A stretch of DNA of 64,000 nt, taken from contig CAWJPJ010000008.1 of the NCBI GenBank assembly GCA_963844715.1, positions 480,001 through 544,000 of the forward strand. Direction: 5' to 3'. Made by a program: the position numbers and the translations under genes. The notes below the pieces were generated by a model. That model was given only the letters and a program-made list of their open reading frames with translations, ran no database searches and was not told the DNA's origin. This document shows, one piece after another, positions 30,734 to 52,512 of the stretch. Each line of letters opens with the position of its first letter. The first letter of the stretch is position 1. This DNA comes from an uncultured Phycisphaerales bacterium (GTDB lineage: Bacteria > Planctomycetota > Phycisphaerae > Tepidisphaerales > Tepidisphaeraceae).

Positions 30734-30862
30734 GCGAAAACCAGAAACCCGGACCCAGAATGTCGAATCAATGCCCGAATGCTCAAATGACGGGAAAGCC
30801 CTTTCGCTCATTCGGATTTCGGGCTTGATTCTGGTTTCTAGTTTCGGATTTCTGGTTTCCGC
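30734..30862. repeat. Heptamer-repeat palindromic element (GAAACC[AC] family), copy A
   Basis: GCGAAAACCAGAAACCCG ... CGGATTTCTGGTTTCCGC arms with 7-nt periodicity. Confidence 0.85.
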
Positions 30863-30864
30863 AA

Positions 30865-31176: not shown

Positions 31177-31255
31177 GGTACATCCTGACTGTCGTCTAAT
31201 CCTGTGGGGACCATGACTAATTTAACTATTTTTGGCGTCCTATAAAACGGGAAAA

Positions 31256-31377
31256 GAAACCCGAAACCAGAAACTCGAATCCCGAATCAAACCAGAATGT
31301 CCGAATGACGAAACGACTTTTCGGTCATTTGGACATTCTGGTTTGGTTCTGGTTTCGGGTTTCGGATTTCTGGTTTC
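31256..31377. repeat. Heptamer-repeat palindromic element, copy B
   Basis: GAAACCC GAAACCA GAAACTC GAATCCC GAATCAAACCAGAATGTCCGAATGAC ... GTCATTTGGACATTCTGGTTTGGTTC TGGTTTC GGGTTTC GGATTTC TGGTTTC. Confidence 0.9.
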
Positions 31378-31415
31378 GCTTGACGCCGCTGCCTCTGGCC
31401 GCGAGATTCCCGCGC

Positions 31416-44117: not shown

Positions 44118-44447
44118 TCAAGGCTCACACGGCGGATCGAACAGGACGGCGGGTATGTCGCGGGCGCCGTGGAGGACGCGAATCACGTCGATGATGTCGT
44201 CGTGGGTCAGATAGAAGATGAAGTATTTGCGGAAGCCGGGGACTGAACACTTGCGCAGCGTGGCGAGTCTGGGGTGGTCGAGTTCATAGCGCGGCCAGCG
44301 AAGGGGATGGCTGCGGATCTGGCTGTATGTCATTTCAACGGCGTCGTAGAAACGCAGGGCTGCGTTGAGATTGTCCTGGGCGATGAAGAGGGCGGCATCG
44401 TCCACGTCGGCGTCAGCCGCGGGATAGATGCGGAGGCGATATTTCAT
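44118..44447 (-). CDS. RelE/ParE family toxin
   Basis: ADADVDDAALFIAQDNLNAALRF...YFIFY...VIRVLHGARD. Confidence 0.88.
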   Translation of the reverse strand: MKYRLRIYPAADADVDDAALFIAQDNLNAALRFYDAVEMTYSQIRSHPLRWPRYELDHPRLATLRKCSVPGFRKYFIFYLTHDDIIDVIRVLHGARDIPAVLFDPPCEP

Positions 44448-44736
44448 GAGTTCTTGGCGGCGCCGCGGGGCTTGGCCAAGGCGGTTTTTTGGCGCGGAAG
44501 TGCCCTCGCTTGAAGGGGGCGGGGTTGCCGCTGGCGAGTCCATCGAGGAGTTTGGAGGTCAGGGCCTGTCTGGCTTGCTGCCTCTCCTGATCCTGCTGAT
44601 AGCGCTCGCGAAGGACTTCGCGGACGAATTCGCTGGCGGAGCCGTAGACGCCGGATGAGACTTTGCCGTCTACATACTGCTTGAGGGGATGGGGCAGGGA
44701 GACATTCATGGTGACTGTGGCGGGATCGGAGGGCAT
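44444..44736 (-). CDS. ParD-like (RHH) antitoxin, probable 3' indel
   Basis: MNVSLP...YVDGKVSSGVYGSASEFVREVLR; directly upstream of the ParE gene. Confidence 0.85.
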
Positions 44737-46497: not shown

Positions 46498-46580
46498 AAA
46501 TTCTGACTGGGATTATAGCAGGAAGAGGGGAAGGAAACGATGAAGGATGAACGATGAATTATGAAGTGAAGACAGCGCTC

Positions 46581-48727: not shown

Positions 48728-50495
48728 GTGGGATTTCTGGAAAATCTGGAAGCGCGGGGAGAGAGCGTGGAGTCGCTGACTGCGGCGAGGGAGGCGCGGC
48801 GCGCGCTGGCGGAATATTGGCTGGAACTTTCGGATGGGGAGGCGGAGCGAGAGTTTTCGGGGGAGATGGGGCGGATTCATTTGCAAATGGCGGTCGCGGG
48901 GGTGCGGGCCGGGATGGTGAGCGGCGCGGATGAGCGCGGCGCGAAAAGGTTTTGGAAGCGGCGGGGGATATGCCGAGCGCGGGGGCGATGTTGGCGGCGA
49001 TGCTGATGTTTTTTCCGCATCAGCTTCCTCGGTTGTGGGAGGTGGAGCGGACGCCGGAATGGCTTACGAGCGCCTATCTGGGGTTTAGCTTGTATCTGCC
49101 TCGGGTTTATCGACAGCGCGATGATCCGGACAGGGCGGTGGATTATTTGCGGGGGCATTTGCGGCGGCTGAGGGAAATTGTGTCGAGCGATGCGCCGGCC
49201 GCGCTGCGCGGGAAGATTCTGGATGCGGCGGCGGGGATGAAGGTGACGCCGGCGTATTTTTCGCGGCGGAATTTGCGCGAGGTGATGCGCGATCGGGCGT
49301 GGCTGCTGGAGGCTTGGCTGACGGCGAGGGGGCACCGGCTGGATCATTCGTTTTCGCGGCGCGTCGGGGGGAGCGGATTCGGGTGGGTGTGGTTGCGCTG
49401 GGGGTTGGGGCGGAGACGGAGACTTTCGCGGCGCTGCCGCTGTATCGGTATCTGGATCGCGGAAAATTTGAAGTGATTTTGATCGTGTGCAAATGGGGAG
49501 AGAGTGAGATGGATCGGTTTTGCCGGGGGCTGGCGGATCGGACGGTGCTGCTCGGCGGGGATTTAGCGGGTCAAGTCGCGGCGATTCGCGCGCTGGATCT
49601 GGATGTGGCGCTGGTCACGACGAACCTCACCGCTGCGACGAATCAGATCGCGATCCTGGCGGCGCATCGGCTGGGGCGGGTGCAGATCGCGGCGGTCAAT
49701 TCGTGTGTGACGACGGGGTTTCGAAATATCGACGCGCATCTTTCGGGGACGCTGGTTGAAGGGGCGAATGCGGCGGAGGATTACACGGAGAAGCTGATTC
49801 AACTCAAGGGGGCGGGGCATTGTTACGATTTTGGAACGGAGCGATTGGGGCCGCCGGAGGAGCGGGTTGGGCGCCGGGAATTTGGCGTTGGGGAAGAGGA
49901 AGTGGTTTTCGTTTCGGGGGCCAACGCGTACAAGATCGTTCCGGAACTGGAAGAGGCGTGGGCGAAGATTTTGGCGCGGACGCCTGGGTCGCGGCTGGTG
50001 CTGCATCCGGATAACCCGAATTGGATGGCGAAATTTCCGTTTGCCGCATGGATCGAGCGAATGAACGCGACGCTGGCGGCGCATGGCGCGGGGGCGGATC
50101 GGGTGGCGCTGCTCGAACGGGCGCCCGGTCGGCAGGAAGTGCTGCGGCGGATGATGGCGGGGGATGTGTATCTGGATTCGTTTCCGTTTTCGGGAGCGAC
50201 GACGATTTTGGACGGACTGGTTTGCGGGCTTGTGCCGGTGACGATGGAGGGAGGGAATTTCAGATCGAAATTGGGGGAAGGGATGATGAGGGAGTTAGGT
50301 GTGCCGGAGTGCATTGCCAGGGATGCTGGGGAGTATGTGGAGATGGCGGTCCGGTTGGGGATGGAGGGTGGGTTTCGGGAGGCGATCAAAAAGAAAATAT
50401 CGGGGGCTTTGAAGGGTGGGCCGCAGTTTTTGGATGGGAGGAGTTATGGGCTCGGGGTTGGGGAAGCGCTCTTGGAAATGACGAATGATAAGTGA
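48728..50495 (+). CDS. GT41 (HMW1C/OGT-like) protein glycosyltransferase, split by indels near 48940 and 49360
   Basis: RLGRVQ, VTTGFRNID, YTEKL, YKIVPE, DVYLDSFPFSGATT. Confidence 0.8.
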
Positions 50496-50767
50496 ACGCT
50501 CCACCCCCATAGGGGGTGGCTTCAGGTAGCCCCGTCGAAGGGGGCGTGGGGGTTTTCGAGGTTCGAATTTTTGTTGGCGTCTCGCGCATCTGTCCCCTCG
50601 CCCCGGTACTCCGGGGAGAGGGTTAGGGTGAGGGGCGGCACTCGACAACCGAAAAACGCCCCTCACCCTAACCCTCTCCCCGTGAGTACACAGGGAGAGG
50701 GGATAAATTTCTCGAACTGCAGAGCCACACAGGGTCGCACGGCCATAGGCCGTGGTTTCATGTAGTA
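50492..50767 (-). mobile_element. Non-autonomous IS200/IS605-family element (PATE-like, 276 bp), inserted 3' of TCAT without target duplication
   Basis: Minus strand: TCAT|TACTACAT-GAAA-CCACGGCCTATGGCCGTG left hairpin; GAAG-CCACCCCCTATGGGGGTGG-AGCGT-TCAC| right end; removal restores the host arm exactly. Confidence 0.8.
50593..50703. repeat. REP-like inverted doublet nested in the IS200/IS605 remnant
   Basis: TCCCCTCGCCCCGGTACTCCGGGGAGAGGGTTAGGGTGAGGGGCG ... CGCCCCTCACCCTAACCCTCTCCCCGTGAGTACACAGGGAGAGGGGA. Confidence 0.88.
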
Positions 50768-50846
50768 ATGACGAATGACGAATCAAATTCCAATGTCCAA
50801 ATGATCGAAGCGCCATTCGGTCATTCGAACATTGATTCGTCATTCG

Positions 50847-51404
50847 TCATTTATCATTCGTCATTTCCGAGACTACGTTTCGCATCTTTTCGTATTCGCT
50901 GTCGATTAGGGCGGGGATCGCGGCGCCGACGTTAACGGCTTTCTCGAGGGGGACCCAGCTTTTGCAGCCGGCGTAGGCGGGGGTGTTTTGGATTGTGATG
51001 GGGGTGGGGAGTTTGTAGGCGCGGACGAGGAGCAGATAGAGGGGGTTTTCTGGGCGGTAGTTGAAGCGCATGTCGATTAGGGCGGGGGTCCAGATGTGAT
51101 GGGCGTCCAGGGCGTCCATGACGGCGCGGGAATGCATGGGGATGATGTCTGTGATTTGGACGGCGGCGGTTAGGTTGATTTGGTCGGGCTCGGCGGTGAG
51201 TTTTTGCAGGTTCACGCCGGGTTTTAGCATTGGGGGGTTTTGATGGACATAGGTCGGGAAGAGGAGAAATTCGGGGTGTTCGATTTCGAATTCGCCGGCG
51301 GATTCGTGGATGCCGCCTTTTCGGAGGAGGAGGATTTGGCGGCCGGAGGCGAGGGCGTCGCAGACGGTTTGCCATTCTTTCAGGGCGACTTGGAGTTGCG
51401 CAGG
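50847..51404 (-). CDS. DUF1802 family protein (start codon unclear)
   Basis: VALKEW...GRQILLLRKGGIHE...FLLFPTYVHQ...YAGCKSWV; open frame extends up to the obgE stop. Confidence 0.8.
   Translation of the reverse strand, partial: PAQLQVALKEWQTVCDALASGRQILLLRKGGIHESAGEFEIEHPEFLLFPTYVHQNPPMLKPGVNLQKLTAEPDQINLTAAVQITDIIPMHSRAVMDALDAHHIWTPALIDMRFNYRPENPLYLLLVRAYKLPTPITIQNTPAYAGCKSWVPLEKAVNVGAAIPALIDSEYEKMRNVVSEMTNDK

Positions 51405-52512
<1,108 letters not shown>

Follow-up and report, generated by a model that had tools for sequence, protein, structure and literature searches.

We examined a nested mobile-element structure in a 64,000-nucleotide (nt) stretch of DNA from an uncultured Phycisphaerales bacterium of the family Tepidisphaeraceae (assembly GCA_963844715.1, contig CAWJPJ010000008.1, positions 480,001 to 544,000). 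This stretch is called the window, and locus coordinates are positions in the whole window; G000 denotes the bacterium's own genome, and C-numbers and L-numbers denote contigs and loci. A palindrome made of heptamer repeats sits between two convergent genes, one encoding a glycosyltransferase 41 (GT41) domain (PF13844) and the other a DUF1802 protein (PF08819). Its left arm is interrupted by a 276-nt insert, which carries an inverted doublet of GC-rich repeats in its middle (Table 1).

Structure of the nested locus

When 50492-50767 was excised, 50474-50491 and 50768-50786 rejoined into an exact 37-nt reverse complement of 50832-50868, as a preliminary description of this DNA had claimed. Only one alternative excision register, shifted 1 nt to the left, also fitted, and the insert therefore has no target duplication. 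The register test and the hairpin positions thus bore out two further claims of that description, that a target duplication is absent and that both ends carry subterminal hairpins. On the minus strand TCAT precedes the insert and TCAC forms its end, and a guide-like tetramer stands at the 5' foot of each hairpin, GAAA on the left and GAAG on the right. Folding of the two end segments was modestly better than that of shuffled sequences (z = -1.7 and -2.1), and the doublet folded with z = -12.6. Of the 37 nt in the rejoined arm, 34 recur in a paralogous palindrome at C7:713544-713668 that has no insert. Because of this palindrome and five further copies of the insert in G000, the structure is not a product of chance, and the nesting of a mini-element in a heptamer palindrome is real.

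The mini-element family and its autonomous parent

The six copies in G000 comprise three that are complete, one that is decayed (C6:328094), one left end and one right end. Besides the copy in the window, the complete ones lie at C7:1051408 (91% identical) and C4:172792 (76% identical). Three of the six adjoin GTCATT arrays, each at a different place in its arm. Tabulation of the left flanks of five copies gave the expected TCAT in three, and ACAT and ATAT in the other two. Across the family, the left end was present in 19 of 141 genomes of Tepidisphaeraceae, with 17 matches in G386 alone.

In relatives, the same ends bracket a lone 140-amino-acid (aa) tnpA open reading frame in a 671-nt element with no tnpB. 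Matches to this TnpA occurred in 9 of the 141 family genomes (a tally that includes the unpublished G004, which enters no other result), several of them being sister elements with other guides. G388 has eight autonomous copies, six of which are identical over 671 nt. The parent TnpA scored 128 bits against NF033573 (IS200/IS605 transposase; cut-off 55), keeps HVH and EYIQQQ, the latter in the catalytic Tyr region, and gave sequence matches to the ISDra2 and IS608 TnpA structures in PDB. Both ends of the mini-element align with tnpA-bearing elements, its last 60 nt being identical to those of the autonomous element L179 at 54 positions. The parent, with a single Y1 TnpA carrying HuH and the catalytic Tyr and with no tnpB, belongs to the IS200 group. 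The 276-nt element has no terminal inverted repeats, is too short for a transposase, occurs as dispersed copies with common boundaries, and has near-terminal palindromes related to those of the autonomous element. These features identify the insert, as judged from sequence, as a palindrome-associated transposable element (PATE), non-autonomous and descended from a tnpA-only IS200-group element. The earlier proposal of a transposase-less Y1/HUH element was thereby upheld, both by the search for further copies in G000 and by the tnpA-only parent in relatives. The copy in the window is probably inactive, an ordinary passenger of its locus.

Copies in G386 that are identical over 269/269 nt lie in two different array types; such identical dispersed copies imply recent movement, as far as sequence identity can indicate it. 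At L174 (G386:C2:31209-32286), four mini-elements stand head to tail. In this tandem, a right end TCAT and the T that follows may have recreated the core target, or multimers formed at junctions may have been inserted.

No cognate tnpA was found in G386, and no tnpB in G000. Five G000 matches to PF01797 were considered as partners and rejected, since they were read as genes like those for repetitive extragenic palindromic (REP)-associated tyrosine transposases (RAYTs) and lack the ends of the mini-element. These five Y1 genes (L001-L005) are flanked by short repeated or inverted motifs, and the apparent identity of L002 and L003 points to recent movement. An origin of the end as an IscB/omega-RNA end was also rejected, the parents being tnpA-only. 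Viral contigs held no relative of the TnpA, the best plasmid match was 62% identical with no named close insertion sequence (IS), and Rfam gave nothing at gathering score, only hairpin-like chance matches.

Pairing of guides and cleavage sites

Target choice in IS200/IS605 elements depends on a site of 4-5 nt set by a DNA guide, whose fourth base pairs with position -1 of the site, consistent with the AAAG/TTAC and GAAT/TCAA pairs. By the published rule, guide base 1 pairs with -3 and base 2 with -4, and triplets are formed from the two bases 3' of the hairpin (PMC5934647; PMC3201880). We applied the pairing rule to relatives of the TnpA at 80 metagenome loci and 22 genome loci. Among ends with a hairpin, 72 of 81 left ends and 70 of 79 right ends had a rule-matching tetramer where its spacing predicted, counts that include repeated copies of some elements. 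The third guide base, which the rule leaves unconstrained, was A in 70 of these left ends and 68 of these right ends. When guides were swapped between elements as a control, 469 of 4,106 combinations matched (11%). The pairs observed across the family were GAAA-TCAT, AAAC-TTAG, GAAG-TCAC, TAAA-TAAT, AAAA-TTAT, GATA-TCAT, AATG-TTAC and CAGG-TGAC. Guides covary with cleavage sites, and the previously suggested assignment of GAAA to TCAT and of GAAG to TCAC is well supported because rule-matching tetramers recur across the family far above the swapped control.

A probable extended, gapped target

The TnpA clade that uses TCAT showed a preference beyond the guided tetramer. Insertion sites were counted after excluding one sister-guide element, a right end that had been misread as a left end, two tandem copies of internal position and two sites present in duplicate. 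Proximity to an array was scored as 7-nt periodicity outside the -8 to +1 motif, with a threshold of 0.5. This is a conservative measure, by which even the site in the window (0.43) was counted as off-array. TT occupied -8/-7 in 55 of 66 clade sites and in 5 of 57 sister-clade sites, and +1 was T in 48 of 49 clade sites. At sites strictly off arrays, with low periodicity and no array words, TT was present in 13 of 19 (p about 1e-10 to 1e-11). The background, taken from G000 and 360 kb of G388, was 5.7-8.3%, and the frequencies at stop and start codons were 4/98 (4%) and 6/102 (6%). Seven sites missed by an earlier filter all had TT, three of them without an upstream array, and TT was found in at least half of the sites for 22 of 25 sources. 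A weaker preference for G at -5 was seen in 10 of 19 off-array sites (24% background), and the base at -6 tracks the host supply of TTC versus TTK words. Ten copies of a sister IS200 element in G708 (L258-L271; guide GAAG, target TCAC^T) served as a control and had no TT bias. The clade thus shows a gapped target, TT-NN-TCAT^T, a preference that is demonstrated statistically.

This target fits the heptamer arrays. Moving the T^T of the cut site by 7 nt gives the TT at -8/-7, and the motif amounts to one heptamer unit plus two bases; because of this spacing, a TTCGTCA array presents a full target in every unit. Insertion sites lay on arrays in 25 of 66 cases for the TCAT clade and in 1 of 57 for the sister clades.

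The TT is most likely read by the TnpA protein. We infer this because mini-elements retaining about 55 nt of each end keep the bias, because those ends hold no conserved AA besides the guide, and because sister elements with AAAA or TAAA guides have no TT bias (0/9 and 0/8). A branch with weak support (91/73) unites the 13 TCAT TnpAs and one member that has another guide. Position 99 of the protein, which by counting on the alignment corresponds to W107 of ISDra2, is aromatic in 12 of 13 TCAT-clade members and Thr in 38 of 44 others, making this clade-specific residue a candidate reader of TT. A natural pairing between left end and target, like that engineered in IS608 (PMC5934647), was not supported: the left foot of G388 complements TTCG, and subfamilies with the same bias lack the complement. 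The dependence of the -6 base on host word supply also disfavours such pairing.

The central doublet

The doublet had been taken for a REP-like element. No GTAG/GGAG or CGTC tag was found at the foot of its hairpins, so that it falls outside the classical REP definition and proved to be BoxC-like instead. It matches the BoxC/TMECO pattern when a longer first loop (up to 14 nt) is allowed, giving 62 matches in G000 with both arms included; the strict consensus, with a first loop of 3-6 nt, gave 0 matches there. All six G000 copies carry the doublet, and for this reason it is inherited cargo that was not inserted at the window locus. In genus g18 the mini-elements have it in the same position, and those in G002, G130, G011, G379 and G383 are without it. 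Of the three levels of nesting originally proposed, a mini-element in a palindrome with a doublet inside it was retained, while the innermost level arrived with the element and is not a REP.

The doublet resembles the BoxC/PIT/TMECO intrastrand-triplex repeat in its C-rich stem, two G-rich stems, TTA second loop and tandem inverted pairs, and differs in its first loop, which exceeds the published 3-6 nt (PMC4666352). BoxC-like arms flank all three DUF559 genes of G000 (C8:678010, C4:191818 and C7:1222750; L046-L048), which suggests a gene-bearing form of the repeat. Here the repeat flanks DUF559 genes and rides in a transposon, whereas the Escherichia coli motif is reported to have no association with transposons (PMC4666352). 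The doublet arms of C4:172792 and C6:328094 contain a second inserted word. The word is also present elsewhere in G000, as next to the DUF559 gene at C8:678330, which hints that variants of the repeat undergo conversion.

The host palindrome and neighboring features

GT41 and DUF1802 both end in EMTNDK and a stop codon, coded by the palindrome arms (50474-50495 and 50847-50868), and the final codons, stop and C-terminus of GT41 were unaltered by insertion of the mini-element. Among five genomes checked, the gene pair is kept in G002 alone; at its orthologous junction the two gene tails differ and overlap, and there is no palindrome. Because of this junction, the heptamer palindrome was itself probably inserted between the genes, to judge from the comparison, with loss in G002 as the alternative. 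In G002 a second copy of the 3' end of the GT41 orthologue lies between that gene and DUF1802 (L117).

Heptamer arrays were called at 207 places in G000, of which 181 were mostly intergenic, and the empty, rejoined palindrome offers eight full targets for the extended motif. Like the intergenic bacterial heptamer repeats (PMC4679880) and the heptamer-armed cassettes of four-helix-bundle genes (PF05635/TIGR02436), these arrays have degenerate 7-nt units and inverted arms and are mostly intergenic. The window palindrome differs from the heptamer-armed four-helix-bundle cassettes in that its loop is gene-less. Four of the seven four-helix-bundle loci of G000 have period-7 arrays called next to them, and the arms around C6:590026 have words in common with the window palindrome. 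We infer that each layer of the locus looks like the gene-less form of a gene-bearing unit. A REPtron, in which the TnpA spreads the heptamer arms, was rejected, the IS having its own ends and an asymmetric position in the arms.

Elsewhere in the window, heptamer arrays lie at 52383-52505 (a palindrome between genes read as rpmA and obgE), 30811-30863, 31245-31387 and 46531-46573. The DUF1802 gene has an internal 20-nt direct repeat (50900-50919 and 51071-51090; 19/20 matching), and a ParD/ParE toxin-antitoxin pair (PF03693, PF05016) lies at 44118-44736.

Table 1. Features at the GT41/DUF1802 junction, in window coordinates
Feature	Position	Strand	Remarks
Mini-element (putative PATE, IS200 type)	50492..50767	-	276 nt; non-autonomous; no transposase open reading frame; no target duplication
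Left end	50736..50767	-	8-nt linker 50767-50760; guide GAAA 50759-50756; hairpin 50755-50738, closing to 50736; layout as in tnpA-bearing parents
Right end	50492..50545	-	Accessory hairpin 50545-50529; guide GAAG 50523-50520; hairpin 50519-50501; AG at 3' foot 50500-50499; cleavage tetramer TCAC 50495-50492
Inverted doublet, BoxC/TMECO-like GC-rich repeat	50593..50703	.	Arms 50595-50634 and 50660-50701; inherited cargo
Target site	50768..50775	-	TTCGTCAT; TT at -8/-7; core TCAT; +1 T is position 50491
Heptamer palindrome, left arm, outer part	50474..50491	+	Codes final residues of GT41
Heptamer palindrome, left arm, inner part, and centre	50768..50831	+	Inner arm 50768-50786; centre degenerate
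Heptamer palindrome, right arm	50832..50868	+	Codes final residues and stop of DUF1802
GT41 gene (PF13844)	49299..50495	+	Start not settled; stop codon from right end of element
DUF1802 gene (PF08819)	50847..51230	-	Convergent; true start probably further upstream

Discussion

The explanation that we consider best, and quite probable, is that a Y1 TnpA acting in trans moved the insert, a PATE belonging to a clade with an extended gapped target, and that the insert landed in a heptamer array as a consequence of that target. The PATE would have kept both ends of a tnpA-only IS200-group element and acquired the BoxC-like doublet early on. By analogy with IS608 and ISDra2, the Y1 TnpA would act on it through peel-and-paste single-strand transposition, with the left guide GAAA selecting TCAT by the known cross-pairing. 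The clade would also favor TT at -8/-7 and T at +1, with a weaker preference for G at -5, these extra bases most likely being read by the protein. Every unit of a TTCGTCA-type array would then be a full target, and with a third or more of the best sites on arrays, insertions would accumulate there. At the window locus, the heptamer palindrome would have entered the GT41/DUF1802 junction first, followed by the doublet-bearing mini-element, whose insertion into the left arm would have left the last codons and stop of GT41 intact.

An alternative that we regard as unlikely, though the most credible of its rivals, is that only TCAT^T is read and that the context attracts the element, the palindromes being open as extruded cruciforms, at stalled forks or as DNA bound by four-helix-bundle proteins, with off-array TT marking decayed arrays. 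IS608 is recruited to stalled forks, and its TnpA binds branched DNA (PMC5027513). By eye, all eight G388 copies and almost every G386 copy lie in heptamer arrays; with a two-sided score that includes the motif, 6 of 8 and 11 of 13 do so against a background of 33-46%, and some excess remains to which a context effect may contribute. Some off-array flanks also resemble short decayed palindromes. Against this, TT persists at the strictly off-array sites and in polypyrimidine flanks without array words, and the motif itself predicts most of the association. Sites with TTNGTCAT^T lie on arrays in 84 of 248 cases genome-wide (34%) and in 71 of 171 intergenic cases (42%), with the motif excluded from the score, near the 21 of 42 observed among insertions; for this reason most of the occupancy of arrays is explained by the longer motif.

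It is distinctly improbable that insertion is broad and that copies persist only in harmless places such as arrays and stop codons. The insertion is silent for GT41 and most arrays are intergenic, as survival bias would have it, but sister clades under similar selection, an imperfect control because their hosts differ, lack the TT and are nearly absent from arrays. Moreover, stop and start contexts show no enrichment of TT, and the bias is strongest in identical, recent copies.

A plain TCAT target has very little probability left. The preliminary description had proposed that the arrays serve as landing pads simply through a TCAT every 7 nt; TCAT is indeed the core predicted by the guide, and it recurs five times per strand of the palindrome. 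The strong association with arrays was confirmed, and its supposed cause was not supported, because arrays hold 639 of the 33,998 TCAT sites of G000 (1.9%), 372 of 7,790 intergenic ones (4.8%) and 11.7% of intergenic TCAT^T sites, far below the share of insertions; a plain TCAT target would require host genomes with about tenfold more array TCATs than G000 and the sampled part of G388. Least probable of all, to the point of being scarcely tenable, is a single insertion copied along with a mobile heptamer cassette: several G388 and G386 copies do have about 12 nt of left flank in common, and the palindromes look mobile, being absent at the G002 junction, yet identical G386 copies occupy different array types, array-linked G000 copies stand at differing positions in their arms, and flank trees do not appear to match element trees.

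Several observations weigh against a gapped target read by the TnpA and against its application to this locus. TT is missing from 11 of the 66 clade sites, 22 of the 66 come from two genomes, and some sites counted as off-array may be decayed arrays. TT persists in one clade member that has V at position 99 and is absent from a nested member whose guide differs (n = 1 each). The intergenic backgrounds depend on a home-made gene caller (78% coding) that over-calls intergenic DNA, and all of the evidence consists of genomic snapshots shaped by selection. An autonomous partner with the same ends, as had been anticipated, was found in relatives and not in G000 (85% complete), where neither tblastn with the cognate TnpA nor NF033573 detected a cognate tnpA. 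The empty orthologous site sought at the GT41/DUF1802 junction was not found among five genomes: G001, G384, G386 and G388 have other neighbors after DUF1802, and G002, without the whole palindrome, provides no empty site for the mini-element. The sequencing-run contigs, fragmentary and uninformative, showed no joint skipping the mini-element, and the paralogous palindrome on C7 is an empty counterpart.

The kind of element and its nesting habit are already known. IS1397, IS621 and ISKpn1, of the IS3 and IS110 families, land on REP and bacterial interspersed mosaic element (BIME) repeats; the present case resembles them in the use of a host repeat family as landing site and differs in that an HUH/Y1 element lands on heptamer arrays. 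Like the PATEs of Haloquadratum (PMC3119063) and Geobacillus stearothermophilus (PMC10055086; see also PMC7290912 for the definition), the insert has near-terminal palindromes without terminal inverted repeats or target duplication, is too short for a transposase, and has ends in common with autonomous IS200/IS605 elements. Haloquadratum PATEs also contain other small repeats (PMC3119063). The element described here differs from known PATEs in that it descends from a tnpA-only element of the IS200 group in a Planctomycete family, its inner repeat is inherited cargo away from the end hairpins, and the PATE itself targets another repeat. As in IS608 and ISDra2, a guide tetramer stands 5' of each hairpin with the same cross-pairing, A is found at -2, AG or AT occupies the 3' foot of the right hairpin, and the +1 preference equals the first base of the left end (PMC5934647; PMC3201880); unlike in those elements, there is no tnpB. 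Known natural targets of IS608 and ISDra2 are contiguous 4-5-mers plus +1 (PMC5934647; PMC3201880). In IS608, upstream sequence has little effect, and longer targets were engineered through extra DNA pairing (PMC5934647), whereas the gapped TT at -8/-7 appears natural here, and the retained ends conserve no AA complementary to it besides the guide. Neither a gapped IS200 target nor an IS200 preference for heptamer arrays was found in the literature searched, with ISfinder tables, subscription reviews and supplements outside the search. What is new is a family-level gapped target, TT-NN-TCAT^T, that steers a clade into heptamer arrays.

A more ambitious proposal, which we offer tentatively and hold to be rather doubtful, is a two-tier target code, in which a DNA guide specifies TCAT and the protein reads a TT lying 7 bases upstream of the TT at the cut site. 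Such a code would be tuned to the heptamer period of the host and would let the element home on dispersed, expendable repeats, with silent insertion even where those repeats supply stop codons. The smallest known transposases would then have a gapped specificity of 9 nt that arose naturally, and a change of one or a few residues, with the aromatic residue 99 as a candidate, could switch it.

The intact, recently amplified autonomous copy of G388 and its matching mini-elements make the claim directly testable. If true, a natural longer and gapped target would extend the DNA-guide rule for IS200/IS605 elements, and a 140-aa transposase would have a higher built-in specificity of the sort formerly obtained by engineering IS608. 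The target would further account for the presence of these elements in heptamer palindromes that they do not themselves spread.

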